Program-made: the position numbers and the translations under genes
In this document: in pieces, positions 24,576 through 62,237 of the stretch
Position numbering within the stretch: the first letter of the stretch is position 1
How the letters are laid out: each line of letters begins with the position of its first letter
From: a virus
Reading direction: 5' to 3' (one strand)
Virus record (IMG/VR): IMGVR_UViG_3300037852_000055
Coordinates: 36,045 to 100,044 of that record
DNA: 64,000 nt
Notes under the pieces: generated by a model
What the model saw: the letters and a program-made list of their open reading frames with translations, nothing else
Databases searched by the model: none
Told to the model about the DNA's origin: nothing

Positions 24576-24658
24576 ACCTAAGCCTTGATCAGCTTAGGTT
24601 AGAAGAAGGGGTAGCTATCCCTACCCCTTCTTCGACTTTGGATAGAAAGAAAATACAA
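24576..24658 (+). ncRNA. Endonuclease-leader pseudoknot RNA, copy A
   Basis: Hairpin 24576-24599; 13-bp stem 24602-24633; loop CUAUCC pairs with GGAUAG 24640-24645. Confidence 0.75.
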
Positions 24659-25144
24659 ATGAGAACTAAGTCTAACGCAAAAGATTACTATATTTATTTG
24701 ATGAGCTGTGGCCAGTATAACTGGCAAAAGATTGGAATATCTACTAGACCACAGGGTAGAGAGAAAGACATTACTGTACCTTTCAAGTTGGAACTAAGTG
24801 CCACACACGTTATAGCAAACAATTTATCAGACGCAGTAAGAGTTGAGTCAGAAGTACATAAATTGTTGCACTACTTAAGAATAAAGCAAGAATGGTTTCA
24901 TTCTGTGACGGTGGAAGTGTTTGAAGAAGCACTGAAAGAAGTCACTGACAACCCCAACAGAAGATACATAGGGGTTACTCATTCTAAACAAGGTAGTTAT
25001 GTAGCTAAAATACGTGTTCAAGGAGAGGTTAGGCACGTAGGGAGCTTTAGTACTGCTAAGAGAGCAGCAGAGGCCTATGATAGAGCTTCAAAACTGTGGT
25101 ATGGTAACAGTAGACCATTGAATTTCTCAATAGAAAATTCTTAA
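24659..25144 (+). CDS. GIY-YIG-like (T5orf172-type) endonuclease with AP2 domain
   Basis: YIYLM...KIGIS..P..R...E..VH...EWF; YIGV...YVAKI...GSF.T...AAEAYD.A...NF. Confidence 0.8.
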   Translation: MRTKSNAKDYYIYLMSCGQYNWQKIGISTRPQGREKDITVPFKLELSATHVIANNLSDAVRVESEVHKLLHYLRIKQEWFHSVTVEVFEEALKEVTDNPNRRYIGVTHSKQGSYVAKIRVQGEVRHVGSFSTAKRAAEAYDRASKLWYGNSRPLNFSIENS

Positions 25145-25584
25145 CCTCTCCTCCCCTCGTGCATGCAATGTGCACTTTCTATACGCGCTTCGCGCCTCCG
25201 GTTAACTCCTTTACCCGGTGGGGCGAAACCTAAGCGTATACCTGTACAGAATCTGCAGTGTGATCAGCGATTGCTATGACACTTATCCCCGCAAGGGTGC
25301 TACGTAACTGTCCAATGACAAGGTGTAGGTGCGAACGAGAATGGACGGACTGCAGATAAAGTTTAAAAAGTTTTGTATCAAGAGATCTTCAGCAGCGAAA
25401 TTAAAAGTTGTAAGTCTGATTTGGATTGAGATGCAAATGACCGCCCGTTGGGGCGAGGCCTATGCGCGGCGGCGCTTAGTGGTCTTGCCCAAAAAGAACC
25501 GAGATAGAGAGCAAGATTACCCCTTAGCCTAGCCAGTGAGTGTAAAGGGAAATTTCTACTTTCTGGTTCCACTGGCAAATTTAT

Positions 25585-25659
25585 TGGCCTGTAGCATAAC
25601 GGCAGTGCTTTTCACTGTTAATGAAACGGGTGTAGGTTCGAGTCCTACCGGGCCAGCCA
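25585..25659 (+). tRNA. tRNA-Asn(GTT)
   Basis: Acceptor TGGCCTG/CGGGCCA; anticodon arm TTTCA-CTGTTAA-TGAAA; GTAGG-TTCGAGT-CCTAC; discriminator G plus encoded CCA. Confidence 0.92.
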
Positions 25660-25744
25660 TTCCTTGTGAAAGGCAAATATGAACTCAGAGAAATGCAAAG
25701 AAGAACTTTTAGAAAATTTACTGAATACCCTAAGGAGAATACAC

Positions 25745-25933
25745 ATGAGCGTAACGCAACTTGATGCGGACATTCAAACATTGACAACCAACGTACAGGC
25801 CTTGATTACGCAGAGCGCGAACTCAGTGCCTCAATCCGAAGTGGATGCAGCCGATGCCCAAGTGGTTGCTCTGAACACAACTGTAGTTGCTGCGCTGGCA
25901 CCTCCTGCAGCTCCAGCAGCGGCCAAGGCCTAA
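25745..25933 (+). CDS. Small Ala-rich coiled-coil protein
   Basis: AAGGAG RBS before ATG at 25745. Confidence 0.6.
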   Translation: MSVTQLDADIQTLTTNVQALITQSANSVPQSEVDAADAQVVALNTTVVAALAPPAAPAAAKA

Positions 25934-26256
25934 GTTTAAAAAGATTAGGAACCGCATAGTCCTTTGACTCTTTAGAGCCAGGGAGAGGTTCCTAAAGAAG
26001 GAGTAAAGTTTCCTCCATGGCCAATCTGAAACTAACCCATTGGGAACCCTACGCCTTTGTGCAAAGAACCAGTGGCAGTCCGTCCTGTACTTGTACCACA
26101 GGCTCCGGCGCGGGGTAAGAAGGGAAACCGCTTTGTGCACATAGCGCAGCCTCCTGTCGCGCATTCTCAGTAGCGCATAAAATGAGAACCAAAGTTAGTA
26201 AGCCGCGTCCGTGCATGGACGTGCAGACAACAGGACACTTTTATTTGTAAAACCAA

Positions 26257-26287
26257 AGCTCTGCCAGAAATGGTAGGGCTATTTTTA
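26257..26287 (+). terminator. Rho-independent terminator
   Basis: AGCTCTGCCA-gaaa-TGGTAGGGCT-ATTTTT. Confidence 0.7.
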
Positions 26288-26360
26288 TGCGTTGAAGACT
26301 CAGGTGAACATACTTTGTCCAGATGATCCGCGCAAGCGGTGCGGACTTAGGAAAATCACT

Positions 26361-26669
26361 ATGAAATACGTATCACAAGCCTTGCTCGAAGCTACGTATA
26401 AAAAATACAACAAGAAATACTTTGGAAATTCTTTACCCAAAGATATTGACCTTCGTTTTGGTCATACCCAGGGAGATCTTGGGTATCAATTGGGTGAAGA
26501 AATTGTGTTGAACAAAAGCAAAGCGTATCGTAGGGATTCCATTTGGAAAGGTACGTTACTACACGAACTTGTCCACTTAAAAGTGGCAGAGAGCAACGAT
26601 CACGGCCCGAAGTTCCAAAAAGAAATGCTAAGACTTGCAAAGGCAGGAGCCTTCAAAGGAATTTGGTAG
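26361..26669 (+). CDS. SprT-like zinc metalloprotease domain protein
   Basis: YN..YF...LP...TLLHELVH...HGPKF. Confidence 0.8.
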   Translation: MKYVSQALLEATYKKYNKKYFGNSLPKDIDLRFGHTQGDLGYQLGEEIVLNKSKAYRRDSIWKGTLLHELVHLKVAESNDHGPKFQKEMLRLAKAGAFKGIW

Positions 26670-26698
26670 GTTAAATTAAAAAGACTCAGGAGAATACA

Positions 26699-27031
26699 AT
26701 GGCAGAAACAGTAGAAGCAGCGGCAGAACAACTAGGAACAGCAGTGGAGGGTTCAACGGTAGCGCCTGTGGAGAAGGCAGCAGTGGCTGCAAAAGTGGAA
26801 GTGACAACGGAAGAGAACCTATTTCTACGCACAACCGAGGCCGCGTTCTTACGCGCACAAGTACGCATTAGAGATGCACAGAAGGGCCTAGAAAACCTTG
26901 TAAAAGAAGCGGAAGCCCATAGCAAGACCTATAGTGAAAAAGTGGAGGCATTGTTTAAGAAGTATAGTGTGACTCCTGCAGAATTTTTATGGGATAACTT
27001 AGAGAATTCTTTTAAATCTATAAAGAAGTAA
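26699..27031 (+). CDS. Hypothetical protein
   Basis: AGGAG RBS; coiled coil. Confidence 0.7.
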   Translation: MAETVEAAAEQLGTAVEGSTVAPVEKAAVAAKVEVTTEENLFLRTTEAAFLRAQVRIRDAQKGLENLVKEAEAHSKTYSEKVEALFKKYSVTPAEFLWDNLENSFKSIKK

Positions 27032-27046
27032 AATTTAGACACACAT

Positions 27047-27125
27047 ATCGGAACTTATAATCCCGATTAGAGTTGGGCAGTGCTCGTTACACTGCCCTTC
27101 TCGACCTTAACGAGAGGAAAACACA
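27047..27125 (+). ncRNA. Endonuclease-leader pseudoknot RNA, copy B
   Basis: Stem GGGCAGUG/CACUGCCC; loop CUCGUUA pairs with UAACGAG 27108-27114. Confidence 0.78.
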
Positions 27126-27350
27126 ATGGGAAGAAAAGTAGTTAATTTTGTTGGGCAAGTTGTTGGTAGCCTTACTATTTTAAAAAGAGTTGAAAACGGT
27201 AATAGAGGAGAAGCCAGATGGCTACTAGAAAAAGCAGCAGCTTATCTTAGAGAATTTGGGTATAAAGATGCAAGACTCAGTGCCAGTGAATATATCCCAG
27301 GAACAAAAACCACAGGAAGTGCCTCAGGAAGTTCCAAAGGAATCTACTGA
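27126..27350 (+). pseudogene. Internally deleted homing endonuclease remnant
   Basis: GQVVGSLTILKRV...ARW N-terminus joined directly to an EndoVII-type LLEKAAAYL C-terminus. Confidence 0.6.
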
Positions 27351-27837
27351 GGAGAAACCTAAGGGGCCTTTGGAGTTAGTCGTACGTAATACAAACGGAA
27401 CTTTTAGCACGCGACTGAAAGACCCAAAGACTGGGCACTTCATGAAGAAGGATCGCCCACTTCCTAGTGCCAAGGAATTGGTCAGAGCAGGAAGGCAACT
27501 TCTTACAAGCGCAGAGGCTGGGCCGGATGGCAAGCTTATCAAAGGCAGTAAGACTCGGCATAGAAAGATATTTGACAACCTTGTGCGAATAGCTACATTG
27601 GAAACCGACGACCCCAAAGCACTCATGTCAATTATAAAGGCGGCAGAATTGCTGTACCTAAGGTTCTATGGGAAACCAGCAGTGTCAGACGACGAGCTAG
27701 ACGCGCTTCGTGTGCACGGTGTGAAAGTGGTAATCGTGCAAGCACCTGAGCTTCAAAACAAAGAAGTTGTTCAAGAAAAACCAAAGGAAATGCTTAAACC
27801 GTCATTCATTGAGGCTGAGGTGATTAGTACCAACTAG
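27268..27837 (+). CDS. Probable terminase small subunit
   Basis: Directly upstream of terL; helical; GK motif near the C-terminus (positional call). Confidence 0.55.
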   Translation: MQDSVPVNISQEQKPQEVPQEVPKESTEEKPKGPLELVVRNTNGTFSTRLKDPKTGHFMKKDRPLPSAKELVRAGRQLLTSAEAGPDGKLIKGSKTRHRKIFDNLVRIATLETDDPKALMSIIKAAELLYLRFYGKPAVSDDELDALRVHGVKVVIVQAPELQNKEVVQEKPKEMLKPSFIEAEVISTN

Positions 27838-27849
27838 GGGTAAAGAATA

Positions 27850-29562
27850 ATGCCACGGAAACAAGCTCAGGAAGTTGAAGAACGTCCAAAGTATATAGAT
27901 GAAAATGGCGTTCTTAACTTTGATAGTTTATTTAAGTTTCAACCCAAACAAACAGAGTTACTTTGCAATGTTATGCGTGGGGGTCATATGTATACCATGG
28001 CAAAGGCCCCTAAGTGTCTTTCAGTCGGAGGAATTCGCGGTGGAAAAACCTTAGGCTGGTTCATGTTTGGCGTACTTCACTATATTCTTAGGTATCCCGG
28101 TTGTAATATGCTGGTGTTGCGTAGGACATTCAAAGAAATTGAAAAGTCTGTAATTGTAGATGTAACTTCAGGAAAATTTATTCCTAAGGAACTGTTCACG
28201 TATGATCAAACAAAACATGTCATGACCTTTATGAATGGGTCACGAATTGTAATGGGCCATTGTGAACATAATTCTGAAAGAGATTTAGCCGCTTATCTGG
28301 GTTCGGCTTATCCAATAATTCTTCTAGATGAGTGTGGACAATTTTCTCCTGATGCTTGGCTTAGGTTGTACACAAGAAATACTGTTAATGCTGGGTGTGA
28401 AGAAGATGAGTTTGGTAATTTGCCAATTCCAGTTTTAATTGGTTGTACAAACCCTATAGGCCCATTCTATGAGTACTATCGCGCACTTTTTACTTTAAAG
28501 GAACCTTGGAATAAGCCTGAGGATGCACGTAAGGACGAAACCAATGGAACTTGGTGGGTGCCTGAGAGTGGTGAGTGGAGATGTATATATAATCCAAAGG
28601 AATATGCGTGTCAACGTTCCACGGTTTTAGATAACCAAGAACTATTGTTACGTGATCCTGGGATTCTTGCTCGTTTAAATAGTCTACCTAAAGCAAAACG
28701 AGACAAAGAACTTCTTGGGCTTGATGGTGCATATGAAGGACAATTTTTCGATGTGTGGTCTGACGATGCACACACAATAAATTTGAGAGAAGATCCAGAA
28801 GCAGTTATTTGGCAGGACTACCAACCATGCTGGGCTGGAGAAGATTGGGGAATGGGAAGCCAGACTTCAGGTAGCGCAAACGCAACATATTTGTTTACAA
28901 AAGCACTTGTGCGGCAGACCCCAGACTCTGATTACAAACAAAAAACAGTTTGTTTCCAAGAAATAGTTACGGTTGGTGGTAAGACATATAAAGAGCTTGC
29001 CGCTATTATACACAGCAAGTGCCGATTACCAAATGGAAAATCTATTCAACTTAAATCTATTCATTTCAGTCATGAGAAATTTGCACGGCAGATGGATAGG
29101 CATTCTCCTGCAGATGACTATTCAAGGGAATTGAGAACCTATGGACTACCTTCAGTTACTCCTGGTACAAGAGACCGTATAGGACGAGCATCTCTTTTGT
29201 ATAATATGTTAAAAAACGGGGATGTGGCAGTGATGGACACCTGCAAGGATATTATTCTTGCTATACCTTCATTGATGCGAGATCCTGATCATCCCGATGA
29301 TGTACTTAAAGTAAGTACACGTAGTGATGATTGCTACGATGGGTTTACCCTTGGTTTGTATGGGCAGCACGCCTCTAAGAAGAGGCCCACTGAAGAGACC
29401 ATAAGGGACAGGGCTCAGGAGCTGGCGCGTACAGATAAGGTTGCTGCTCACTTCTACCTTTTAAAGAAGGCGGCAGAGGAAGCAAACCGTACAGTTACGT
29501 TTGTTCCAAGAAAACAACCAGTGTGGGTGGGAAAAATGGGTATAACAGGAGACTCAGTGTGA
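27850..29562 (+). CDS. terL: Terminase large subunit
   Basis: Walker A GGIRGGKT, LRRT, Walker B ILLDE, CTNP, nuclease EDWG...DDCYD. Confidence 0.93.
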   Translation: MPRKQAQEVEERPKYIDENGVLNFDSLFKFQPKQTELLCNVMRGGHMYTMAKAPKCLSVGGIRGGKTLGWFMFGVLHYILRYPGCNMLVLRRTFKEIEKSVIVDVTSGKFIPKELFTYDQTKHVMTFMNGSRIVMGHCEHNSERDLAAYLGSAYPIILLDECGQFSPDAWLRLYTRNTVNAGCEEDEFGNLPIPVLIGCTNPIGPFYEYYRALFTLKEPWNKPEDARKDETNGTWWVPESGEWRCIYNPKEYACQRSTVLDNQELLLRDPGILARLNSLPKAKRDKELLGLDGAYEGQFFDVWSDDAHTINLREDPEAVIWQDYQPCWAGEDWGMGSQTSGSANATYLFTKALVRQTPDSDYKQKTVCFQEIVTVGGKTYKELAAIIHSKCRLPNGKSIQLKSIHFSHEKFARQMDRHSPADDYSRELRTYGLPSVTPGTRDRIGRASLLYNMLKNGDVAVMDTCKDIILAIPSLMRDPDHPDDVLKVSTRSDDCYDGFTLGLYGQHASKKRPTEETIRDRAQELARTDKVAAHFYLLKKAAEEANRTVTFVPRKQPVWVGKMGITGDSV

Positions 29563-29930
29563 CCATTGTAGAAGTAGCTCAGACAATTAGGGAAGTGTTC
29601 AGACAACTCTTTAGTACACGCCTAGTCGCGCAATTGACAATGGACTTAATGAATACCAGAGCAGATGCTGAGCGTATGCGTAGCGAATATCAGGGAATCA
29701 TAGCCGATTTGCGGCAGGATAAAGCACAGCTTATCGCAAGGCTTACTATGCACGAGAGCAAAATCGGATTGATTCCATTGGATCAAAAAAAGATAGTACC
29801 CCATTTTGATTTTAGTACATTCCCTCCAGTTAAAACAAGTTGGCAACTGCTTCAGGAAAAGCATGATGAGCAAATGCGACAAGAGTTGGCTGAGGAAGAA
29901 GCACAGAAAAACCAAGTATCAACTGTGTAA
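29559..29930 (+). CDS. Hypothetical coiled-coil protein
   Basis: GTGA coupling to terL. Confidence 0.65.
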   Translation: MTIVEVAQTIREVFRQLFSTRLVAQLTMDLMNTRADAERMRSEYQGIIADLRQDKAQLIARLTMHESKIGLIPLDQKKIVPHFDFSTFPPVKTSWQLLQEKHDEQMRQELAEEEAQKNQVSTV

Positions 29931-29940
29931 GGAGATAAAT

Positions 29941-30171
29941 GTGGCAGATAAGAAAGACAAAGGAACATTAACTCGTATCTACATTAATGTTGCTAAGAAC
30001 GGTTTTGAGCTAGAGTGTAGCTACGAGAAGAAAGCCACTTTATCTCAGAAGGCTGGGTGGGTGCCTTCACCTTATTGTGAACCAGAAAAATACGTAGCAA
30101 AAAGTAAGGCAGATTTAATCAAACAACTAAACGATGTTCTTAAAGACTGCAAAGACTGCAGCGAGAAATAA
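29941..30171 (+). CDS. Hypothetical protein
   Basis: AAGGAG RBS; GTG start. Confidence 0.65.
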   Translation: MADKKDKGTLTRIYINVAKNGFELECSYEKKATLSQKAGWVPSPYCEPEKYVAKSKADLIKQLNDVLKDCKDCSEK

Positions 30172-30183
30172 TAGGAGAATACC

Positions 30184-30618
30184 ATGGCTTTTAAGACCGC
30201 TGATGGAGAACGCAGTTTTGGTAGTGGGTTTCGTGCTAAGAAGTATGATGAGCACCATGCTCCCGCAGAACGCAAAGAAGAATCCCGTACAAATGCAATG
30301 GGCATGTCAAAGAAATCCCAACCTGCTGCAGAGAATAAAGAAGACGAAGGGATGAATCCAGAGTCTGTGGTTGCTGAGCACGGAAAAGCTACCACGGTTC
30401 ATGTTAAGCACGATCACGTAGCCAACAAGCACCACGTCACTAGTACGCACGAAGACGGCCACGTTCATGAATCTGATCATGCTTCTTCTGCCGACGCACA
30501 CGAACACGGAAAGAAACTCGCAGGAGCAGAGAATCCTGAGGAAAACCCAGACGAAATGGGTCAGGAAGACAATAGCTCTGGTATGGAAAGTTTTGGTCTA
30601 GGTAATCAACCTGTATAA
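30184..30618 (+). CDS. His-rich hypothetical protein
   Basis: HVKHDH...HHVTSTHEDGHVHESDH. Confidence 0.75.
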   Translation: MAFKTADGERSFGSGFRAKKYDEHHAPAERKEESRTNAMGMSKKSQPAAENKEDEGMNPESVVAEHGKATTVHVKHDHVANKHHVTSTHEDGHVHESDHASSADAHEHGKKLAGAENPEENPDEMGQEDNSSGMESFGLGNQPV

Positions 30619-30627
30619 AGGAGCAGT

Positions 30628-30975: not shown

Positions 30976-30984
30976 GAGAACCCT

Positions 30985-31778: not shown

Positions 31779-31799
31779 AGAACGACAGGAGCAATTTAA

Positions 31800-35172: not shown

Positions 35173-36720
35173 ATGGCAGCAAGTGATAGTGCAATCGTGG
35201 ACTTCGCAATTGCGGAGGAAGCAGCAGCAACAGCCGTTGTGGATGCAACGGTAGACTCAACAACAGATGACTCAGCAGTAACCACGGACGAAACCACTGC
35301 AACTACAGAGGACACAAGCACTGTAGACTCAGGTAAAAACGCAGACGGTACCGATAAAACTCAGGAACAAAAGGACGAAGAAGCACGAGTCGTTGCCGCA
35401 GGTAAGGGCAAGACTCAGACCACAGTTGATGGCAAAGGTACTCCAGATAGTATTAGCAAAGTTCTAAAAGCAATTAAAGATGCTGACCCAAACAATGCCG
35501 GGGCTGTAAAGACCCTGCGTGACTCATATTTTGGAGAACAAGCGTACAAAAAGACTTTTCCTACGGTGCAATCTGCGAGAGAAGCCAAGGCGTTTATTGA
35601 TGCTGTTGGGGGCGCAGAAGGCTGGGAAAGTACCCAAGGGATTATTCAGAGTATTAAGCAGTCTGATGAACTGTTGCACGCTGGAGACCCCAAGATTTGG
35701 GACAACATTGTAGATGACTTAAAGACTGAAAACCATTTAGATGCGTTGCCAAAACTCGCATCCGGTGGGTTGGACACGCTTAAGAAAAACAATGCAGATC
35801 AGTACTATGAAGTAATTGCCCCACATTTCCTTGCAGGCTTGGAAACTGTACGTCTTCCTAATGCCGTGGCTTCCCTAGGAAAATATCTAGGAATTGCTAA
35901 AGAAGAACTGGCAAAGGCCGAGTACAAAGGTGACACCAAGGGTATTCAGGCTCTTGAACAAATCACTAAGGATATGGACGAGTGGATCAAGGGCTTACAA
36001 TCGGAAGAAAAGAACCGTAAGGAAGCTGCCACCAAAGTTGATCCAGAGCGTTTGAAGTTAGAGGCAGATCGCAAGGCATTTACTGAGCAGCAAACCAAGG
36101 CAGAACAAACCAAGGCTACTGAGTTTAAACAAGGGGTTGCTAAGGAATTAGATAGCCACAGCAATGTGTCCCTAGGGAAAGAGCTTACATCATATCTTTC
36201 CATGCCATTTTTCAAAGGAATGCCCCAAAAGGGTGCCGATGGTGGGCATGCCCCATGGAAGATTGATTTAGGCAACGGAATTAAGCAGGCATTGTACAGT
36301 GCGTTGGAAGCAGACAAGTCATACCAAATTGCAATGAAGGCCCAGTGGGGTGCTAAGGTACCTGATAAAGCTAAGATCCAAGAAATTCACAAAACATTCT
36401 TAGCAAATAATGGGGCTGATATTGTTAAACAGGTTATTGAAAGCCGTTACCCAGGATATGCTAAGGGTGGTAGTGCAGCTGGACGTGTAGCTGCCGCCGC
36501 TGTCAAGAAGGATAAGGAAACAAAAATTACTGATACCAGTGTATCCACAGGGAAGCCAGTTTATGTTGCGGTAAAACCCAAGGAATTGGTTAGGGATACA
36601 ATCCGCGTGGCCGGGAAAGAGTACAGTCCATCGGATTTGACAATGCTGGAAATCGGTGGTAAGGGATTCGTGAAGACCTCTGATAACAAGGTGCGCTACA
36701 TCACCTGGAGAAAGCCTTAG
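35173..36720 (+). CDS. Probable scaffolding/head assembly protein
   Basis: Acidic low-complexity N-terminus, coiled coils; between portal and capsid. Confidence 0.6.
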   Translation: MAASDSAIVDFAIAEEAAATAVVDATVDSTTDDSAVTTDETTATTEDTSTVDSGKNADGTDKTQEQKDEEARVVAAGKGKTQTTVDGKGTPDSISKVLKAIKDADPNNAGAVKTLRDSYFGEQAYKKTFPTVQSAREAKAFIDAVGGAEGWESTQGIIQSIKQSDELLHAGDPKIWDNIVDDLKTENHLDALPKLASGGLDTLKKNNADQYYEVIAPHFLAGLETVRLPNAVASLGKYLGIAKEELAKAEYKGDTKGIQALEQITKDMDEWIKGLQSEEKNRKEAATKVDPERLKLEADRKAFTEQQTKAEQTKATEFKQGVAKELDSHSNVSLGKELTSYLSMPFFKGMPQKGADGGHAPWKIDLGNGIKQALYSALEADKSYQIAMKAQWGAKVPDKAKIQEIHKTFLANNGADIVKQVIESRYPGYAKGGSAAGRVAAAAVKKDKETKITDTSVSTGKPVYVAVKPKELVRDTIRVAGKEYSPSDLTMLEIGGKGFVKTSDNKVRYITWRKP

Positions 36721-38665: not shown

Positions 38666-38745
38666 ACCCAAGGGTTGCTCCTTGGGTTAGAGCTTGGGGG
38701 TGCTCGTACACCCCTAGGCTCGACCTTACGAGAGGAAATAGAGAA
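38666..38745 (+). ncRNA. Endonuclease-leader pseudoknot RNA, copy C
   Basis: Hairpin 38666-38687; stem 38690-38721; loop CUCGUA pairs with UACGAG 38727-38732. Confidence 0.8.
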
Positions 38746-39348
38746 ATGTTTGGTATTATTTACAGGATTACAAATAAAATTACAGACATGTCCTATGTGG
38801 GACAAACTGTGCAAACCTTAAGAGAGCGGTGGGTGGAGCACGTTTCTCATGCTAAGAACAAAACCACCGATTCCTATATTGCTAAGGCAATACTTAAGTA
38901 CGGAGCAGAAAACTTTGAAATAGCAATCCTGCAAGAGTGTGAAAGTAGAGAAGAGTTGGATTTCTCAGAAGTATTCTATGTATCTCTGCTTAATACTAAA
39001 GTGCCCAATGGGTATAACTTAGCTGATGGTGGTGGAGGAGTATCTGGGTGGGCCAATGGAAAAGGTTGGGTACCTACCGAGGAAACGCGCAGGAAGCTCA
39101 GTGAAGCAGGAAAAGGAAATACCAATGCTTTAGGCAAAAAGTATTCTGCTGAGTTTAGAGTTAAGGTTAGTGCAGCTTTAAAAAGAAGAATACGTAGGAA
39201 AGAATCTTATGAAAAGGCAGCACGAACTGCAATAGAGAACCAAAGCCACAAGCGACCTCTTACTGCTAAACAAATAGCAGGCAACACATCAAGAAGAGGA
39301 AAGCCGTGGTCAGCAGCACGAAGAGAAGCACAAAATAAACGGAGATAG
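38746..39348 (+). CDS. GIY-YIG homing endonuclease with NUMOD3-type repeats
   Basis: GIIYRITN...YVGQT...R..EH...AILKYG.ENF...E...GYNL..GG; TEETRRKLS. Confidence 0.9.
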   Translation: MFGIIYRITNKITDMSYVGQTVQTLRERWVEHVSHAKNKTTDSYIAKAILKYGAENFEIAILQECESREELDFSEVFYVSLLNTKVPNGYNLADGGGGVSGWANGKGWVPTEETRRKLSEAGKGNTNALGKKYSAEFRVKVSAALKRRIRRKESYEKAARTAIENQSHKRPLTAKQIAGNTSRRGKPWSAARREAQNKRR

Positions 39349-39614: not shown

Positions 39615-41632
39615 ATGGCACTATTAGAGGCTTAACAACAGCAGGCCTCGTTAAATTTCTCCTGATTGTCTTGGAACCTGTGACGGTAACAAGGCGGAAG
39701 ATTTAGAAAAAGTAGCACACAATTTCTAAATCACCGTGAGAGACTAAGCGGAGAAACGTCCAAGGACGATGCGATAGTCCGAGCTTTACGAGAACAGAAT
39801 CGTAAGAGGTTGGCAGAAATGACTAACCATGCATTTTACAATGCATTAACAAAATGGCTGTAGAAGCAGTCGAACTGGACGCCTTTGCTAAGGAAATTCC
39901 TGATTTGGTTTTCCATGGCACAACGGCCTACAGTATGTTCAAAAACGAAGCTACGAAGATCCCTGTGTCTAACCAGAGTAACGCTGGTGGCGTGCAGAGA
40001 CCAAGCTTCAGAGTACCTTTCCGGGTACAGGCTGGTGCTGCAATTAGCCAAGGCACTGGCAACGCAGATTCAATGAACCGGGGAACTGGTAGCCAATGGG
40101 CTTCCTTTGCTCTGGCTCCCGTATATCTGTTTAATGTCTGTGAAATTTCTTGGCTGGCCCAGGCTTCAACGGACAGTAAGCAGAAGGGTTTGTTCGCTGT
40201 CAAAGCCCAGGAGATGAAGAATTCTCTGGATGCGGCTATGCAAGGCATCGAGGGCCTAATCAACTCCGATGGTTCTGGTATGATTGACCAGATTCCTAGC
40301 ACTGCGACCATTGTGCTTTCTGGTGGTTCCCCTGCTTCACAAACTGCTAGTATCGCAGGAGTGAACGTTGCTGTGGCCTTTACGGATCAGCAAGTAGTTC
40401 AGTTCTTCAGTACTGGCGGGGTTCAGCGTACAGGTGGACGTACAACTGCGACCATCTCCTATTCTGATGGCCCAAGCAACACTTTGTACTTCAGTACCGC
40501 TCTCCCTACCGACGTAGTTGTTACCGATTACATCGTTGTGGCTGGCGCAACTTATGGAGCTGGTAACTCCATTCTGGGTATTAAGGCTTGGGATGTGAAT
40601 AGCAATACTGGAACTATCGGCGGATTGAATCGCAATGCTTATCCTGGCCGTTTGAGCACCCCAACCATTAATTTGGCTGGAGCAGCTTTGACCCCAGGCA
40701 TCGGGCAACGCGCAGAAGTACTCCTAGGCCGCGCCCTAGGACCAGATGCGGACAGCATTAAGTCGGGCATTTGGTATGGCCCACCTGAGCAAGCATTCGC
40801 ACAGAGCAATTTGATGTACAATGTGCAAATTGCAAATGCCCAGGATATTAAGGGAGACAAAACCCTTGACATGGGTAAGAAGTACTTCAGTGATACGTTC
40901 TGCGGACGCAAGTATCACAAGAGCTGGACTGCGATTAACAACCGCATGGATTTGCTTGTACTAGACAACTGGTACATTGGAGAGTTGAGCCCACTTGAGC
41001 TGTACGACTTCGGTGGCGGTGAGAAATAACGCTGCTCTATTCAGAAATGAATATTGTGAATCGAGAGAATTCAGGGAAACTCCTTAATGGACAATCCTGA
41101 GCCGAGCCTCGCAAGGGGAAGGTGCAACGACTATTCCGAAAGGAAGTAGGGAACAGTGTTCCCGAAGTACTCGATACCCGTTAGGGTAATGATATAGTCT
41201 GATCTTACAAGGAATTGTGAGAGAGCAAATGGAAACGATTTGCTCGTAACATGAATGAACGTAGTTGCTCCTGTTCCAGACATTAATGGTCAAGCTGGAA
41301 CTTCTAGTTATTTGACCTCGCACATGTTTGCGTATAATACGTGCTTGTCCCAAAAGGTTAGAGCACTTTAAATTCAATCTGATTGACTCGAACCCTGAGA
41401 TGGCAACGAGGCGGAAGGCAAGTTTTTTTGTAACAAAACTTGACACCGTGAGAGACTAAGCGATTGAACACAGTAATGTGATGCAATAGTCCGAGCTTTA
41501 CGAGAACAAAATCGTAAGAGTGTAGCAGAAATGACTACACCATGCTTAAGCATGCAACAATAACGTAACCTAGCAAACGCCGCTCCCAGAGCGGGTCTTT
41601 ATGTGCAAAATGCTGCGGTTCCAACAGTATAA
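39615..41632 (+). CDS. Major capsid protein, spliced: join(39615..39632,39857..41020,41258..41346,41566..41632), 445 aa
   Basis: Removing three introns gives MALLEA|AVEAVELD...FGGG|NVVAPV...YNTCF|NLANAAPRAG...VPTV*; position after portal and scaffold. Confidence 0.85.
39633..39856 (+). ncRNA. Group I intron 1 (ORF-less, 224 nt)
   Basis: P1 GAGGCU/GGCCUC with U-G; P10 ACAGC/GCUGU; P3 UUUCUCC/GGAGAAA; P7 GACUA/UAGUC; terminal G. Confidence 0.9.
41021..41257 (+). ncRNA. Group I intron 2 (ORF-less, 237 nt)
   Basis: P1 GGCGGU/GCUGCU; core AAUUCAGGGAAAC, AAUCCUGAGCC, GGUGCAACGACUA, GAUAUAGUC; 3' site inferred from frame plus terminal G. Confidence 0.88.
41347..41565 (+). ncRNA. Group I intron 3 (ORF-less, 219 nt)
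   Basis: P1 GUGCUU/GAGCAC; P10 AGGUUA/UAACCU; P3 UUCAAUC/GAUUGAA; P7 GACUA/UAGUC; terminal G. Confidence 0.9.
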
Positions 41633-41649: not shown

Positions 41650-41759
41650 TTGACTTAGCCTCATGAACTTTGTTATACTAAGTATAGTAACAAATTGGGA
41701 AAGGGAGCAGCCTGACACTGCTCCCGATTCCATAAATCGTGTCAGGAGATTTTATTAGG
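41650..41759 (+). promoter_or_regulatory. Promoter plus variant pseudoknot leader (copy E)
   Basis: TTGACT...TGtTATACT; stem GGGAGCAG/CUGCUCCC; loop CCUGACA pairs with UGUCAGG 41740-41746. Confidence 0.65.
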
Positions 41760-42299
41760 ATGCCAACCAGCAAAGGAACATTGCATTTAAGTAGTACAAA
41801 ACTTGAGAAGTATGGAATTACAGCAGAGATGTACAGGGAGTCTAGAGAAAAAGGGCTAAAGTGGTGTGGATGGCACAAGAGGTTTGAAGAGCCTTTGTTG
41901 TTTAATAAAGGGTGTAAGTTGTGTAGAGAAGGTGCCAAAGAAAGAGACAGGGAACTTTATGGTAAGTTTGGGAATGCAAGAAAACACCATGCTCCTAAAA
42001 ACCACTATGAAGATACTTTGTTAAAGCAAGACGGACACTGTGCATTATGCTCAGCAACTGAAGGAACAGGTCTTCATATTAGGCTACACATTGACCATGA
42101 CCACAAGTGCTGTAACAAAAAATCTTCCTGTGGCAAGTGCTTACGGGGTCTTCTTTGTTGGGAATGCAACCATCAATTGGGAAGATTAGAAGAACTGCTA
42201 ACACAAGTAGAAACCATTGTTCCCGCCCCCGGTACGTGGCTAGAGAAAGCCTTGGGGTATCTTAAGCATTGGCAAGAGGTTCATAATGGTACTCACTGA
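41760..42299 (+). CDS. Endonuclease VII-family homing endonuclease
   Basis: QDGHCALC...LHIDHDH.CC...SCGKCLRGLLCWECN..LG. Confidence 0.9.
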   Translation: MPTSKGTLHLSSTKLEKYGITAEMYRESREKGLKWCGWHKRFEEPLLFNKGCKLCREGAKERDRELYGKFGNARKHHAPKNHYEDTLLKQDGHCALCSATEGTGLHIRLHIDHDHKCCNKKSSCGKCLRGLLCWECNHQLGRLEELLTQVETIVPAPGTWLEKALGYLKHWQEVHNGTH

Positions 42300-54887: not shown

Positions 54888-54899
54888 GAGGCTCAGTGA

Positions 54900-55541: not shown

Positions 55542-55550
55542 GGAGCACTA

Positions 55551-55769: not shown

Positions 55770-55838
55770 ACACAGAATCTACTCTGGATAAGTAGAGATG
55801 GCCGTGAGAATCGGCCTACATTTTAGGAGGAGAACACA

Positions 55839-58800: not shown

Positions 58801-61409
58801 GCCCTCTTAAGAGCGCAACGCTTAATATCACTTCCAGTGCTATGAGTTCTGGAGGAGTTGCAACCTATGGGTATACCATCACTAGTACCCCAGCAGTGTC
58901 CCCTGTTAATGGGCAATTGGTTACCACCAGCAACTTAACCAACGCTGCAGTATTTAATACTACAGGGGTTATGTCTAATGTAACTGGGTCAACTTTCCAA
59001 ATTTCGGGGTTTCCAGCAGGAAATGCAATACTCCAAGCAGTGGAAGATGGACAAGCAGTTACATTTGGAACTTCCTTTACATTTGATCCTGGTACTAATG
59101 ATGTTGGCACTACTACTCCTTCCCCTATATTTGGAAATGATACAGGAACGGGACTGTTATCGGTGGTGGGGTCTTCTATTGTTCCTATAGGAGCAGGTAC
59201 ACGGCAGGGTGTAGTGTTTTTTATAACGGAAAGTGGGTATGAAACTGCAGCATCTGCCCCAGCAGTATTTACTACGTCAGAGGATGCTAATTTTATCTTT
59301 GCTAGTAATCTTCCTATTGGCCCTCCCAATGTTATTGCAAGAGGCATTGCTTTTACAGAGGCAGGGCAAAACGGTGTACCTGGAGAAAATTTTTATGTAA
59401 TACCAAATCCAGTAACCATTACCGTAGGAAACACATCAACAACCTACACAGCTACTATTGTACAAGATAACACCACAACTAGTGCTAAGTTTTCGTTTAC
59501 AGATGCTGTTCTTCTTAAATCTCAAGCCATAGATATACAAGGTAATGACCTGTTTAACTTGGTTGAGCTTGGAAGTTCTGCTTGGTGTTTGCCTTATGCT
59601 GGTCGTATGTTTTATGGGTTACAATTAAACAAAATTAACAACTGGACTTCCGGTGGAGGACTTACCTTTGACGGAGGCTACTTGTCCAACGGGGTAAATG
59701 GCAGTGCTGCTAGCGAGAACGTTGCACTCCTTGGTGGCCCCTATGCTAATTTACAGCCTTTAGGTTGGAACATAGGCACGGCTGTTGACCAAACATTAGT
59801 AACTAGTCCTATTGCTGGGCAGTCCTTGTATATAAAAGACACATATCCTGGCACAACTGCTAAGGTGGGACTTATATGGCAAACTGCATACAGAGATCCA
59901 TACCAAGTTGCTATCATAAACCCTAATACAGAATACTCGGTTAGAGTAACCGCAGAGTGTCCTTCCGGTGTAAACCAAGGAACATTAGTGATTGATCTTA
60001 CTGACTATAACCCAGGCATTGGCTTTGGCCAAACTTATGGGTCATTTTCTGTGCCACTGATTAGCATGACTTCTAACATGCAGGTATTTGTAGGAGCATT
60101 GTTGACCACTCCATTTACAACAGGAGTATCACAAAATTTACAGATACGTATGTATGTACAAAACATGGGATACTTATCGGACTGCCTTGTGGATAGAGTA
60201 GAGGTTTTCCCCACGGCACAACCTTATATACTCGCCCAGGTGTATGGGTCTTACGCAGACGATCTAGAAGCAATTGATGCGTCTGGTTCTGGTGGAATCA
60301 TTAATACCACATCAGAGAATCCCCAAGCATGTCTGGGTGGTTTTGTAATGCACGATGAGATGTATCTTCTAAAGTTAAACTCATGGTATGCAGCACAGGA
60401 CAACCCAAACTCTGAGCCGGGAGGCTGGTCTCTTAGGGAGATCTCTAATAGAGTTGGTACCTGCGGCATAAATGCCTATGATACTGGAGAAGAGTGGGCG
60501 GTCACTGCTTGTAGAGAAGGAATCTACGGCTTTAACGGTGGACAGCCAGTTAAGCTGATGCAAGAACTGTGGAATCTTTGGGAAACAATTAATTGGGAAG
60601 CTGGGAATACAATTTGGCTTCGCAATGACATTGTTAACAAGAGAATCCTATGTGCTGTGCCTTTACCTACGGGCACTAATCCTGTTACAGGGGTTCCAAC
60701 AGCCACTACCCTATGGTTGCCTAATTCACCATACAACCCTGCTCCGGTTTCCCCAAACGTAATGCTCATGCTCAATTACCAAGCATTTGCCACGTTTGAT
60801 GAAATGATCAGCGGCATGCCTGTCCACTCTACTATGTTTGGCACCTTAGCGGCTCCAGACATGAGGAGAAAGTGGTCTATTTGGCAGATACCTAGTCCAT
60901 ACGCTGATTTTATTACAAGGCAAGATGGGTTAGATCAACCTTTATTCATAGGGAACGGAATAGACTCTTCTAAGATTTATAGGTTAGACAATAACCAAAA
61001 ATCTGACGATGGTGTTGCTATAGATTCTCTTTATTGTACCTATGGGTTTACGAACGCGACGAAGAGCACTACCATCCCCATACTAGGCATGCACCGAAAA
61101 CAGTTTTCTGTTTTTCAAACAACTATTGAAGGTGCAGGAAATGCTAGTGTTACTTTGTACCCAGATACATTGGGAGCTAAGTATCCCTATGTTATACCAG
61201 GAGGAATAAACCTAAGTAACCCTGCAATGCAAGATGCATTTAGACCTTTGAATGTGGTTGGCAATAGACTCTTTGTAGAGACTAGAACCAATGCAGTTGG
61301 AAGCTGGTTCAACCTTGATAAACTGTTGCTTACTGGCAGAAGTGCTCCTTACTCTAACCTCAATCCTCTTGGAGGAATGAATAGAGGCATAGTTGCAGGA
61401 GCTACATAG
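55839..61409 (+). CDS. Large tail (nozzle/stabilisation-type) protein with inserted beta domains, 1856 aa
   Basis: GGL......DLP.GASP...D...G...RPG N-terminus; repeated GG..DLWG domains. Confidence 0.65.
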   Translation: MGHNLEQLGTASLDTMGGLYAQANPQDLPEGASPRTYDTDFIVGSVFTRPGLVSIYTYTNTLNITKVIIGSGNVGMFSYNGATIPVINEGFLLQGFTGAAEFLNDQVVYVLATNTMLGIFTAVVVGPSGAYINLSGTAISTVGQFVGPNAPTVAVNAVLDGVPWSNPGGILGDTSYASVASSGLVNSELIPEVSVNDGSGTTSKPAWSNPSNVTSTSSLATVVLTSSPLQLSSVDIVSTGLGLELPSNAVIEGLSISLQSAFAFSGTTTGNQGPLEGSVSSGAGWSGSIASGGSASIVVNPGTQSSVLTGSSFGFSIPTTATITGISATVTASTINGANQIGTLILHLTLGGEKVQLLTSSPVRTTYGGSTDLWSIPSVSVSQINSSSFGIELQGSAPVSTDPPHFVAGTADITVSDVVLTVYYNNGGASGNASVSLQLTQAGTAIGSVTSFALTNSLTTYVAGSPFYLWGTALTPSVVNDPTFGVLIGAQSGVFEPNTSYTIDANNLQFTLYYSVTGTDGLQAKAFNFSIQPTNGVTGLETTYQAYSSSSNTLTFQLIKNGVAVGVPKVQTITTTPTIYSLGGGNDLWGTAWSYSDINSVGFGWQVTSSGGGTAFINDVDMLVFITPGLADFNYIKSYIQNNERITTLALDSLGNMWGEDVTDLPGIFSLESIYITPGTYAKSATSDNQEYIVFSNLRVGTDRPRVASINSSDEVQFLPLSQIGPGAPPSFTASLGNGINALVVTAYSIVSGVATFTFTAVAGFTPSVGSLYLISGTGNTGLDGNTFIVLGTPAPTSTTFSVSTTAVGSGSGLSAEATPAYSYSISSITQPAAAPFNGQILLWSAGPSSTTPGTTLTFFYGGAGQAENPGILTAFNSNNPCIVYITGVPAGAPGNGTWLVTSHGIGVPPSENLSVPFFTVTYTSSNYQRYGGPGGSGPNGPGNDGNFQITLATIDTNTFVADLSSGDTIQITGAIPAGWNSSWTVQSPLKSATLNITSSAMSSGGVATYGYTITSTPAVSPVNGQLVTTSNLTNAAVFNTTGVMSNVTGSTFQISGFPAGNAILQAVEDGQAVTFGTSFTFDPGTNDVGTTTPSPIFGNDTGTGLLSVVGSSIVPIGAGTRQGVVFFITESGYETAASAPAVFTTSEDANFIFASNLPIGPPNVIARGIAFTEAGQNGVPGENFYVIPNPVTITVGNTSTTYTATIVQDNTTTSAKFSFTDAVLLKSQAIDIQGNDLFNLVELGSSAWCLPYAGRMFYGLQLNKINNWTSGGGLTFDGGYLSNGVNGSAASENVALLGGPYANLQPLGWNIGTAVDQTLVTSPIAGQSLYIKDTYPGTTAKVGLIWQTAYRDPYQVAIINPNTEYSVRVTAECPSGVNQGTLVIDLTDYNPGIGFGQTYGSFSVPLISMTSNMQVFVGALLTTPFTTGVSQNLQIRMYVQNMGYLSDCLVDRVEVFPTAQPYILAQVYGSYADDLEAIDASGSGGIINTTSENPQACLGGFVMHDEMYLLKLNSWYAAQDNPNSEPGGWSLREISNRVGTCGINAYDTGEEWAVTACREGIYGFNGGQPVKLMQELWNLWETINWEAGNTIWLRNDIVNKRILCAVPLPTGTNPVTGVPTATTLWLPNSPYNPAPVSPNVMLMLNYQAFATFDEMISGMPVHSTMFGTLAAPDMRRKWSIWQIPSPYADFITRQDGLDQPLFIGNGIDSSKIYRLDNNQKSDDGVAIDSLYCTYGFTNATKSTTIPILGMHRKQFSVFQTTIEGAGNASVTLYPDTLGAKYPYVIPGGINLSNPAMQDAFRPLNVVGNRLFVETRTNAVGSWFNLDKLLLTGRSAPYSNLNPLGGMNRGIVAGAT

Positions 61410-61410
61410 T

Positions 61411-61517
61411 TTGTGGTATACTAAAGTTAGGTGAGAAATCCTAAGGCTTAGCGGCCTTAGGCTAGAGTTTGGGAGGTGCCTGATACACCTCCCTTCTCGA
61501 CCTTATCAGGAGGAAAA
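61411..61517 (+). ncRNA. Extended -10 element plus endonuclease-leader pseudoknot RNA, copy D
   Basis: TGTGgTATACT; hairpin 61440-61461; stem GGGAGGUG/CACCUCCC; loop CCUGAUA pairs with UAUCAGG 61504-61510. Confidence 0.8.
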
Positions 61518-62237
61518 ATGCAAGTGTACTTAATTACGAACAAAGTTAATGGTAAACAATATGTAGGACAGACCACCAAGACACTGAGTCATAGGTGGAC
61601 AGAGCATTTAGATTACAGTAATAACCCAAACAAAAGATTAACAGTTTTTCATAAAGCCCTTTTTAAATATGGAAAAGACGCTTTTTCTATAGAGCCTCTG
61701 CACGGTTGTGTTAGTAAATTTGAAATGGATTTTGTTGAAACTTTCTACATACACTTTTTAGGCACTAAACTTCCTAATGGTTACAACATGACAGAGGGTG
61801 GGGACGGAGTTTTTGGGTACAAAGCCACAGATGGTACTATACAGAAAATAAAAGAAGCACGTGCTAAGCAAGTTATGCCTCCTGTAACTGAAGAGACTAG
61901 ACGTAAAATGAGCATAGGCATAAGTGCAGCTAAGCCTTGGAAACATGGAACTAAAACTGGGAGAGTAAATCACAAATGTGATTGTGAGCTGTGCAGACAG
62001 TGGGCTAGAGATAAGTGGCAGAGAGATAAAGCCAAGATAATTCAAAAGAAAATAGAACAAGGGTTGCCTTTAGAACGGCAATCATGGAACAAAGGCACTG
62101 CCAGAGGTTACTACAAAACTACAAATAATAACTGGCAAATAACCTTTTGGATAAAAGGAAAACTAAAAAGCTTTGGTACTTTTGATAAAAAGAGAGATGC
62201 CAAAGCTTGGGCAGACATTATTAAAAAGGACATATAA
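61518..62237 (+). CDS. GIY-YIG homing endonuclease (NUMOD3-type, AP2-like tail)
   Basis: VYLITN.VNGK.YVGQT...GYNMTEGG; TEETRRKMS. Confidence 0.9.
   Translation: MQVYLITNKVNGKQYVGQTTKTLSHRWTEHLDYSNNPNKRLTVFHKALFKYGKDAFSIEPLHGCVSKFEMDFVETFYIHFLGTKLPNGYNMTEGGDGVFGYKATDGTIQKIKEARAKQVMPPVTEETRRKMSIGISAAKPWKHGTKTGRVNHKCDCELCRQWARDKWQRDKAKIIQKKIEQGLPLERQSWNKGTARGYYKTTNNNWQITFWIKGKLKSFGTFDKKRDAKAWADIIKKDI

Follow-up and report, generated by a model that had tools for sequence, protein, structure and literature searches.

Homing endonucleases have to be expressed at a level high enough to spread and low enough to spare the phage. To our knowledge, control of these genes by RNA structure has until now been known from a few gene-specific hairpins of T-even phages. 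Loop–loop kissing is used by ColE1 RNAI/RNAII, by the phage P1/P7 c4 RNA with its same-strand targets and by the phi29 pRNA, and in these systems the intermolecular pairing was shown by experiment. The leader family described here shares with them 6–7-nt hairpin loops that are fully complementary and covary, and such loops are the specificity determinants of kissing systems; in the leader, however, intermolecular pairing is one reading of a steric conflict.

In T-even phages, structures sequestering the ribosome-binding site control the expression of the homing-endonuclease genes I-TevI, I-TevII, I-TevIII, segB and Aeh1 mobE (PMC2988022). The leader resembles them as a cis RNA structure at the ribosome site of phage homing-endonuclease genes in polycistronic messages, and the presumed purpose on both sides is to limit nuclease translation. 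The T-even hairpins are single and gene-specific, and late promoters with start points within the hairpin relieve them (PMC2988022), whereas the leader is one conserved multi-helix RNA with loop–loop complementarity, common to unrelated nuclease families. The E. coli rpsO (S15) operator also adopts a two-hairpin or a pseudoknot fold with a loop that pairs downstream at the ribosome site, but its sequence and gene are unrelated to the leader and S15 is the effector there (PMC3985624). The Rfam S15 model gave only a chance-level match, elsewhere and on the other strand.

A pseudoknot switch in repZ/repA of IncI-alpha, IncB and IncL/M plasmids (Asano & Mizobuchi 1998; Praszkier & Pittard 2002, as cited in PMC8053102 and PMC10724649) is similar in layout. 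As described there, the loop of an upstream hairpin has its pairing partner immediately 5' of the Shine–Dalgarno sequence (SD), and these partner bases and the ribosome-binding site otherwise lie in a local hairpin. The leader matches this account in that its anti-loop is the loop, and its SD core the 3' strand, of the third hairpin, P3. In these plasmids, formation of the pseudoknot turns translation on, the local hairpin is opened by a leader peptide that terminates there, and the loop is contested by an antisense RNA, whereas the stop codon upstream of the phage leader lies 60–70 nt from P3 and not at the local hairpin.

Results

The DNA comes from IMG/VR record IMGVR_UViG_3300037852_000055, the 100,044-bp genome of an uncultured phage. 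The window, on which all coordinates are based, is one strand of 64,000 nt (positions 36,045–100,044 of the record). Four full copies of the leader and one variant were found in it.

24576–24658, + strand: leader copy 1 (60.3 bits; minimum free energy (MFE) fold P1+P2+P3, z −6.9)
24576–24583/24592–24599, + strand: P1 of copy 1
24602–24614/24621–24633, + strand: P2 of copy 1, 13 bp, loop CUAUCC at 24615–24620
24636–24639 (CUUU) : 24646–24649 (AAAG), + strand: P3 of copy 1, whose loop is the anti-loop GGAUAG, 24640–24645
24659, + strand: start codon AUG behind copy 1
27047–27125, + strand: leader copy 2 (69.6 bits)
27047–27051/27063–27067, + strand: P1 of copy 2
27070–27072 (GAG) : 27100–27102 (CUC), + strand: lower P2 of copy 2
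27075–27082/27090–27097, + strand: upper P2 of copy 2, loop CUCGUUA at 27083–27089
27105–27107, 27108–27114 and 27115–27117, + strand: anti-SD CCU, anti-loop UAACGAG and SD AGG of copy 2
27126, + strand: start codon AUG behind copy 2
38666–38745, + strand: leader copy 3 (64.8 bits)
38666–38673/38680–38687, + strand: P1 of copy 3
38690–38702/38709–38721, + strand: P2 of copy 3, a perfect 13 bp, loop CUCGUA at 38703–38708
38724–38726, 38727–38732 and 38733–38735, + strand: CCU, anti-loop UACGAG and AGG of copy 3
38746, + strand: start codon AUG behind copy 3
61440–61517, + strand: leader copy 4 (91.8 bits)
61440–61447/61454–61461, + strand: P1 of copy 4
61465–61467 (GAG) : 61496–61498 (CUC), + strand: lower P2 of copy 4
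61471–61478/61486–61493, + strand: upper P2 of copy 4, loop CCUGAUA at 61479–61485
61501–61503, 61504–61510 and 61511–61513, + strand: CCU, anti-loop UAUCAGG and AGG of copy 4
61518, + strand: start codon AUG behind copy 4
41696–41759, + strand: variant leader, copy 5, without P1 (16 bits with covariance model R1, over the P2 part only)
Within copy 5, + strand: lower helix UGGGA:UUCCA
41703–41710/41718–41725, + strand: upper P2 of copy 5, loop CCUGACA at 41711–41717
41740–41746, + strand: anti-loop UGUCAGG of copy 5, inside a P3-like hairpin AAAUC:GAUUU
Upstream of copy 5: sigma-70-like promoter TTGACT-17-TATACT

The initial annotation had placed four copies at 24576–24645, 27047–27114, 38666–38732 and 61440–61510, with the loop/anti-loop pairs CUAUCC/GGAUAG, CUCGUUA/UAACGAG, CUCGUA/UACGAG and CCUGAUA/UAUCAGG, and a fifth variant at 41703–41746 with CCUGACA/UGUCAGG; all of these positions and pairs were confirmed. 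The pattern TAGA-N25-45-TCGACYT matched the window at 24600, 27068, 38688 and 61463 only, and four matches were reached in 0 of 100 shuffles. The four full copies scored 60–92 bits with R1 (E 1e-16 to 1e-26). A search with a covariance model had been proposed as a check, and scans with R1 and the pattern yielded 73 distinct leader matches in related phages, on about 45 viral or metagenome contigs. The contigs with a leader belong to one clade of uncultured phages of ~100 kb (TerL identity 59–62%). When the 100,044-bp genome was scanned blind to genes for hairpins with a loop of at least 6 nt fully complementary to nearby downstream sequence, six were found, namely the five leaders and one other with its complement 28 nt away, a probable chance match. 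The MFE z-scores of the five leaders of the genome range from −2.9 to −6.9.

A weak R1 match at 62161–62231 was rejected because it lies inside the GIY-YIG coding sequence and lacks the structure, and L421 was rejected as a terminator-like false positive. When genome contigs were scanned with the strict pattern, a single locus among the matches listed, L101, survived the structural filter, and it is probably a chance match. The isolate-phage collection yielded neither DNA nor protein relatives of the region, nor the leader, and PHROGs families were found for 0 of 10 neighbouring late genes. At Rfam gathering thresholds the window gave a tRNA and a group I intron only, and at E up to 10 the leaders gave chance-level matches to miRNA, sRNA and frameshift-element models, with no riboswitch or ribozyme model among them. 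The int-alpA model (RF02996, gathering score 35.8 bits), a closed three-way junction unlike the three serial hairpins of the leader, matched neither this genome at E up to 10 nor the related genomes G001, G002, G009 and G010 at E up to 1, and was absent from the cmscans of three contigs with 14 leader copies together (L423, L439 and L037). The annotation had recognised no named RNA family in the leader, and the Rfam scan, int-alpA included, agrees with this. No description of the leader was found in the literature, although it may be listed unnamed in supplements of RNA-motif surveys. The leader is an uncatalogued RNA family that matches no Rfam 15 family at gathering score.

Anatomy and covariation

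The leader is about 80 nt long and consists of P1, a junction YUA, P2, 0–2 nt and P3, followed 4–5 nt later by AUG. P2 has a constant 13 layers, made up of GAG:CUC, a small U-rich internal loop or bulge and 8–10 G-rich pairs, and is closed by a 6–7-nt loop. P3 is a hairpin of 3–4 bp that pairs an anti-SD (CCU/CCUU) on its 5' side with the SD core (AGG/GAGG) on its 3' side, and the P3 loop between them complements the P2 loop exactly, by Watson–Crick pairs. The SD core therefore lies in the P3 stem (CCU:AGG and covarying variants) just upstream of the nuclease start codon, which is 7–8 nt past the anti-loop in most leaders. Simple masking of the SD does not account for P1, for the YUA junction or for the strict length of 13 layers.

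All helices covary. In alignment A3, which was fitted to R1, P1 and lower and upper P2 were 95.9% paired with changes on both sides in 17 of 18 pairs, values that 0 of 500 shuffles reached, and this bears out the covarying stems of the initial annotation. Even GAG:CUC is replaced by GCG:CGC in L003:2795. P3 is the helix missed in that earlier reading. It is present in the MFE folds of all four full copies and occurs in compensated forms (ACCU:AGGA, AUCU:AGAU, GUCC:GGAC, AACU:AGUU, CUUU:AAAG, CUCU:AGAG and CCUU:AAGG). The fixed junction bases had been taken as a hint of a ligand- or protein-operated switch; the bases are indeed conserved, but the seemingly fixed CCU(U) is the anti-SD, whose partner in P3 is AGG at the ribosome site.

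A perfect complement of the whole P2 loop was present in 70 of the 73 matches, with about 41 distinct loops. It lay 17–19 nt downstream in 67 and 16–20 nt downstream in 68; one of the 70 has it at 10 nt and is probably a false positive. The mean complement was 6.4 nt with the leader's own tail vs 3.1 nt with the tails of other leaders, and scans anchored on the 5' half of the leader alone also recovered perfect anti-loops. The loop and anti-loop diverge 4–8 times faster than their flanks. Since G.U cells far outnumber A.C cells in the P1/P2 stems (99 vs 16), the leader is an RNA of the sense strand. P3 also uses U.G pairs, and G.U is entirely absent from the loop–loop pairs.

Downstream genes and genomic setting

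The open reading frames behind the five leaders in the window are as follows.

24659–25144, + strand: T5orf172/MUG113 nuclease-type gene, behind copy 1
27126–27350, + strand: remnant ORF of 74 aa without a Pfam family, behind copy 2
38746–39348, + strand: GIY-YIG + NUMOD3 homing-endonuclease gene, behind copy 3
41760–42299, + strand: Endonuclease_7-type gene, behind copy 5
61518–62237, + strand: GIY-YIG homing-endonuclease gene, behind copy 4

Leaders are associated with nuclease genes. At the curated Pfam cut-off the domains behind them are GIY-YIG, T5orf172, HNH, EndoVII and NUMOD3, and every hit at or above that cut-off is a nuclease or homing-endonuclease domain. In two genomes, eight of nine gene-blind motif matches lie ahead of nuclease genes, and the two leaders without an anti-loop are also without a nuclease ORF. 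Not every nuclease gene of the genome is preceded by a leader; the one at 14411–14913 is without it. At the site of 61518–62237, relatives carry different nuclease genes or none, which, together with the gene association, supports the proposal that the leader travels with nucleases.

The Pfam domains support the earlier assignment of two GIY-YIG genes and one EndoVII gene. For the gene behind copy 1 the T5orf172/MUG113 assignment held, while the AP2 domain also ascribed to it was not detected in 24659–25144. The ORF behind copy 2 had been read as an EndoVII-type remnant; over its first 32 residues it shares 44% identity with the protein encoded behind leader L178, and by this similarity it is the remnant of a leader-associated ORF.

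In most leaders an upstream stop codon lies 1–14 nt before P1 and 60–70 nt from P3. An own promoter or a long spacer is found at copies 1, 4 and 5, at L208 and at L247:1462, and where sigma-70-like promoters are present they lie upstream of the whole leader. The conserved junction octamer is nearly confined to leaders (YTCGACYT occurs five times in the window, four of them in leaders), and no conserved promoter-like motif was found within them; relief by an internal promoter in the manner of T4 found no support.

Geometry and energetics of the folds

The initial annotation described a pseudoknot that includes the long stem. In an A-form model, a 13-bp stem 1 would leave 47 Å to be spanned by a 5-nt linker, or 9.5 Å per nucleotide, and a static classical H-type pseudoknot on the full 13-bp P2 was rejected as sterically impossible. 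Intramolecular kissing of P2 and P3 was rejected on the same geometry, with a coaxial P2–kiss–P3 stack 67 Å long vs a linker of 0–2 nt. A pseudoknot becomes feasible in this model once at least 3 bp of P2 and all of P3 are open. On this modelling, the 13-bp P2, P3 and the loop–loop helix are mutually exclusive within one molecule, so that the leader either switches between two states or pairs between molecules.

By nearest-neighbour estimates, lower P2 and P3 together amount to about −7 to −9 kcal/mol, and loop–loop stacking to about −10.8 kcal/mol before any pseudoknot penalty; with the penalty left out, the two folds differ by no more than a few kcal/mol. On its own, P3 contributes little stability (about −1 to −3 kcal/mol). 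In the leaders with a perfect P2 of 13–14 bp (copies 1 and 3, L178 and G001:107004), the cost of opening the base equals or exceeds the gain of the loop–loop helix. These leaders still keep a perfect loop complement. Opening cost and loop–loop stability are weakly correlated (rho −0.25 to −0.32, ignoring relatedness), in the direction contrary to that of a balance model, and the correlation is uninformative.

Discussion

We see an about even chance that this leader family of free-standing homing-endonuclease cassettes is a toggle between two folds that gates nuclease translation. In the three-hairpin fold the SD core would be masked in P3. In the pseudoknot fold, the base of P2 and P3 would be open, and a loop–loop helix of 6–7 bp would form and bury those bases that adjoin the SD or overlap its 5' part. 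By toggling between these folds the leader may act as a brake that keeps a potentially harmful nuclease low despite the heavily expressed late operons around the cassette. A cis-acting brake or gate on nuclease translation is the most likely function; we infer the control, its direction and any trigger.

The pseudoknot leaves AGG free and could therefore be the ON instead of the OFF state, with the P2 loop capturing the anti-loop, holding the SD-masking P3 open and activating translation; as a trigger, ribosomes terminating just before P1 might disturb the P1/P2 junction. The SD core is paired by P3 only, the end of the anti-loop is always immediately 5' of AGG, most leaders follow an upstream stop within 1–14 nt, and RepZ translation needs a pseudoknot according to the account of it in PMC8053102. 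However, a ribosome terminating there reaches P1 only, several leaders have an own promoter or a long spacer, and in most copies the pseudoknot takes up the first GG of GGAGG. We regard activation as unlikely. Somewhat less doubtful is pairing between molecules: two RNAs with the same leader would kiss through the P2 loop of one and the P3 loop of the other, or P3 would be targeted in trans by a processed P1–P2 fragment, in the manner of the phage P1/P7 c4 RNA. P2 and P3 would then be stacked base to base with the complementary loops at opposite ends, and P3 would be locked shut in a concentration-dependent manner specific to each cassette. This would explain why three covarying helices that cannot coexist in one molecule are conserved and why the two loops are equal-sized, fully complementary and stem-closed like known kissing complexes. 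Loop pairs that are strictly Watson–Crick and diverge 4–8 times faster than their flanks are no less in keeping with a specificity code than with a plain cis helix, the cis pseudoknot is disfavoured in leaders with a perfect P2, and 6 of 10 distinct long P1 loops contain 6-nt palindromes vs 1.25 expected. On the other hand, a cis rearrangement is simpler and energetically within reach, most P1 have plain tetraloops, and some genomes (L423, L439) have two leaders with the same loop, so that orthogonality is not strict. If pairing between molecules were true, each cassette would have a private 6–7-nt address and nuclease translation would be self-limiting and cassette-specific, by an RNA-only, same-strand antisense logic that diversifies rapidly.

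Alternatively, P1/P2 could be a site for RNase III, RNase E or RNase P, or a protective 5' stem–loop, by which the nuclease message is set apart from the late polycistron. Stable hairpins at the 5' edge and the position directly behind an upstream stop codon are consistent with this, and a 7-nt loop on a helix of 13 bp, with RACCU after it, might be compared loosely with a tRNA minihelix. ARAGORN and Rfam, however, detected nothing tRNA-like or ribozyme-like at the leaders, leaving the idea of a tRNA-like RNase P substrate unsupported, and covariation of loop with anti-loop and of anti-SD with SD, centred on the ribosome site, would be left unexplained; we consider processing or stability quite improbable. 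Still less credible is a DNA-level element, such as a recombination or homing signal, a protein-binding palindrome or a cruciform, with complementarity kept by template switching. It would accommodate the strictly Watson–Crick loop complement, the palindromes in some P1 loops and the different nuclease genes at the same site in relatives, but the excess of G.U over A.C cells in P1/P2 and the U.G pairs in P3 point to sense-strand RNA, and the leader is always in register with the SD and the start codon. The conserved junction bases and a pseudoknot beside the SD recall a riboswitch or self-cleaving ribozyme, to which we give equally little credence: most conserved bases are paired (GAG:CUC, CCU:AGG) and few unpaired ones are left (YUA, RA), and no such Rfam model scores at E up to 10.

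A single conserved, modular leader is thus common to nuclease genes that come from at least two catalytic superfamilies, unrelated to each other, and lie at many insertion sites. This suggests that the mobile cassette includes its own control element. The leader is unusual in design, in that the loop of its SD hairpin is a fast-evolving but exact complement of a neighbouring loop beyond its reach. The leader is a compact natural model for switching between pseudoknot and hairpin or for specific RNA–RNA recognition, and it can be used as a marker for free-standing nuclease cassettes in the genomes of uncultured phages.

Leader copies and the RNA family

The four elements described in the initial annotation lie exactly where it placed them (full leader copies 1-4, at 24576-24658, 27047-27125, 38666-38745 and 61440-61517), and its fifth, looser element is present at 41703-41746, within copy 5 (41696-41759). 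Copy 5 builds the same three parts from different sequences and lacks P1, the first of the leader hairpins P1, P2 and P3. The pattern TAGA-N25-45-TCGACYT matches the window four times, always within the four full leaders, and none of 100 shuffles reached four. A gene-blind scan of the whole genome, for a stem of at least 8 bp with a 6-7-nt loop whose full reverse complement follows shortly downstream, returned the five leader sites and one other, with its complement 28 nt away, which is probably a chance match.

A strict pattern scan of IMG/VR gave 43 loci, about 18 of them with the complete fold and new loop/anti-loop pairs. The covariance model R1, a check proposed in the initial annotation, was built from 14 sequences. 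It scored the window copies at 60-92 bits and detected additional copies in whole records of the same contigs, in metagenome contigs and in loci retrieved by patterns anchored solely on P1 and the 5' junction. In total, 73 distinct R1 matches were found on about 45 contigs, with up to six copies per contig (L423). Rfam returned no match even at E = 10, in agreement with the initial annotation, which did not recognise the leader as a named RNA family. The int-alpA model RF02996 had no match in the window's own genome or in four relatives, and cmscan over three contigs jointly holding 14 leader copies found no int-alpA. Therefore, the leader family is separate and uncatalogued. A literature search found no publication describing the leader. 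Our data strongly support that the leader is real and that it represents a new family of structured RNAs specific to the cassettes of homing endonucleases.

The carrier phages

IMGVR_UViG_3300037852_000055 is a single contig of 100,044 bp that ends with the 64 kb of the window. The minus strand of the window carries a family-A DNA polymerase gene and the plus strand a late module including a T4-type large terminase. No relative of the window was found among isolate phages, and no PHROG family for any of ten late genes. The large terminases of four other leader-carrying contigs show 59-62% identity to that of the window, which indicates that leader carriers form one fairly deep phage clade. In the related genome G003 (C1:11208-13619) the terminase large-subunit gene is interrupted by about 700 nt, between query residues ~139 and ~126, and in G001 (C1:9717-11384) it contains a TAA within the reading frame; introns, inteins or inserted nuclease genes may account for both.

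Two further features lie among the leader copies:
25585-25659, plus strand: tRNA-Asn (GUU), between leader copies 1 and 2
41011-41221, plus strand: group I intron (Rfam, 73 bits), directly 3' of a 391-aa ORF (39854-41029)

A terminator-like hairpin with a U-run is located at 26257-26285, 3' of the tRNA. The nuclease gene behind copy 5 is just downstream of the intron region (surroundings 39615-41632).

Base pairing in the leader

The relation between the P2 loop and its downstream complement, the anti-loop, is the strongest signal in the leader family. In 70 of the 73 matches the anti-loop is perfectly Watson-Crick complementary to the whole loop; it lies 17-19 nt 3' of the loop in 67 of them, and there are 41 different loop sequences. 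One of the 70, with its complement at 10 nt, is probably a false positive. The pairs noted in the window as differing yet staying complementary show this relation. Of the three matches without an anti-loop, one is truncated by the end of its contig and two are degenerate and have no nuclease ORF. Mean complement length was 6.4 nt between a loop and its own tail and 3.1 nt against the tails of other leaders.

Covariation of the stems, also claimed earlier, was borne out in the leader alignment A3 (36 distinct rows), where P1, lower P2 (GAG:CUC) and upper P2 are 95.9% paired and both partners have changed in 17 of 18 pairs, figures that come from an alignment fitted to the model. No shuffle or slid register was comparable. 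One member replaces GAG:CUC with GCG:CGC. The length of P2 is nearly constant (5' arm of 12-13 nt in 52 of 65 leaders). G.U outnumbers A.C by 99 to 16 in the stems, and the structure is therefore formed by sense-strand RNA. P1 (loop at 24584-24591 in copy 1, for example) is capped by UAGC or UUGC tetraloops or by 7-9-nt loops containing 6-nt palindromes, namely UGAUCA, UAAUUA, UUAUAA and AUUAAU.

RNAfold also predicted a small hairpin, P3, 3' of P2 in all four full window copies and most relatives, which had been overlooked in the initial annotation. In P3, CCU(U) of the junction GACCU pairs with (G)AGG, the Shine-Dalgarno (SD) core after the anti-loop, and the anti-loop forms the hairpin loop. 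P3 covaries, with AUCU:AGAU, GUCC:GGAC, AACU:AGUU, CUCU:AGAG and CCUU:AAGG as alternatives to CCU:AGG, and with CUUU:AAAG in window copy 1. The anti-loop is 7-8 nt from the start codon in most leaders. Most of the conserved junction is thus paired sequence (GAG:CUC and anti-SD), and the ligand-type pocket suggested by its fixed bases is not apparent.

Genes and insertion sites

Four of the five ORFs behind the window leaders encode nuclease domains, and the remaining one, of 74 aa, is a remnant that resembles at its N-terminus the product encoded after another leader; the initial annotation had read all five as endonucleases or a remnant. In about 65 more downstream ORFs, all Pfam hits reaching the curated cut-off were nuclease or homing-endonuclease domains (GIY-YIG, SegE_GIY-YIG, NUMOD3, HNH/HNH_3/HNH_5, Endonuclease_7 and T5orf172). 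Below the cut-off there were a few weak zinc-ribbon, treble-clef and HTH matches, in ORFs also matching Endonuclease_7. Many no-hit ORFs share the N-terminus MFYTYLWLR...YYVGKG with NUMOD3-positive members.

In the related complete genome G001 (IMGVR_UViG_3300050821_002136), the gene-blind scan found three full motifs, preceding a GIY-YIG-like, an Endonuclease_7 and a T5orf172 gene. Two of them are promoter-proximal and were overlooked by R1:
G001 107004, minus strand: leader L490, before the Endonuclease_7 gene
G001 14667, minus strand: leader L485, before the T5orf172 gene

Both lack P1 and lie directly 3' of TGGTA-type promoters. They have the long hairpin, a complement to all 7 nt of its loop, and anti-SD:SD hairpins (GUCU:AGAU and CCCU:AGGG).

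The copy-4 site is occupied in relatives by a GIY-YIG gene, an HNH-like gene or another nuclease-type gene, or is empty. From these alleles, presence and absence at the site follow the pattern expected of mobile cassettes.
G001 ~82706-82760, minus strand: nuclease-free allele of the copy-4 site (locus L484/L489)

The 60-nt spacer of this allele retains a P2-like hairpin (GGGGAGGUG / CACCUCCUC, loop CUAAGCA), with a loop match of only 4 nt (CUAA:UUAG) 5' of the SD of the structural gene. The hairpin could be either the scar of a lost cassette or an ancestral hairpin that gave rise to the leader.

Since leaders usually start within 1-14 nt of the preceding gene's stop codon, most cassettes lack their own promoter. 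In some, an extended -10 promoter lies 5' of the entire leader. One nuclease-type gene of the window stands apart:
14411-14913, plus strand: Endonuclease_7-type gene without a structured leader, in the early/replication region

Its N-terminus is homing-endonuclease-like and it has its own extended -10 promoter, TGGTATAAT.

Alternative folds and function

The leader had been described as a pseudoknot. The loop/anti-loop complementarity of that proposal stands, but its coexistence with the full 13-bp P2 does not. With standard A-form parameters, a 5-nt linker would have to cross about 47 Å, an impossible 9.5 Å per nucleotide, whereas opening the three GAG:CUC pairs makes the pseudoknot comfortable. 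A coaxial P2-kiss-P3 stack in one molecule was also rejected, being 67 Å long against a P2-P3 joint of 0-2 nt. Therefore, the three covarying interactions are never simultaneous in one molecule. The leader either switches between a three-hairpin fold and a pseudoknot, or forms its loop-loop pairs with other molecules instead of in cis. By rough nearest-neighbour sums, the cis folds differ by no more than a few kcal/mol (lower P2 plus P3, about -7 to -9 kcal/mol; loop-loop stacking, about -10.8 kcal/mol before any pseudoknot penalty). In the three-hairpin fold P3 would mask the SD core, though P3 is weak. The pseudoknot would bury the bases just 5' of AGG together with, in most copies, the first GG of GGAGG. 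Pairing between molecules is kept as a rival by the lack of any G.U among loop-loop pairs, by their divergence 4-8 times faster than that of the flanks, and by the enrichment of 6-nt palindromes in long P1 loops (6 of 10 distinct loops, 1.25 expected from shuffles).

The best-supported function that we infer for the leader is to control how translation of the nuclease genes is initiated. This is based on the variable pairings, all of which are in register with the SD and start codon, on anti-loop loss in the copies that lack a nuclease ORF, and on the RBS-sequestering structures known from homing-endonuclease genes of T-even phages (PMC2988022). In mechanism, its nearest precedents are the rpsO operator, with a double-hairpin and a pseudoknot form (PMC3985624), and the pseudoknot switch of repZ/repA in I-complex plasmids. 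RNA control in cis of phage homing-endonuclease translation is known, and the leader family would be a variant of it.
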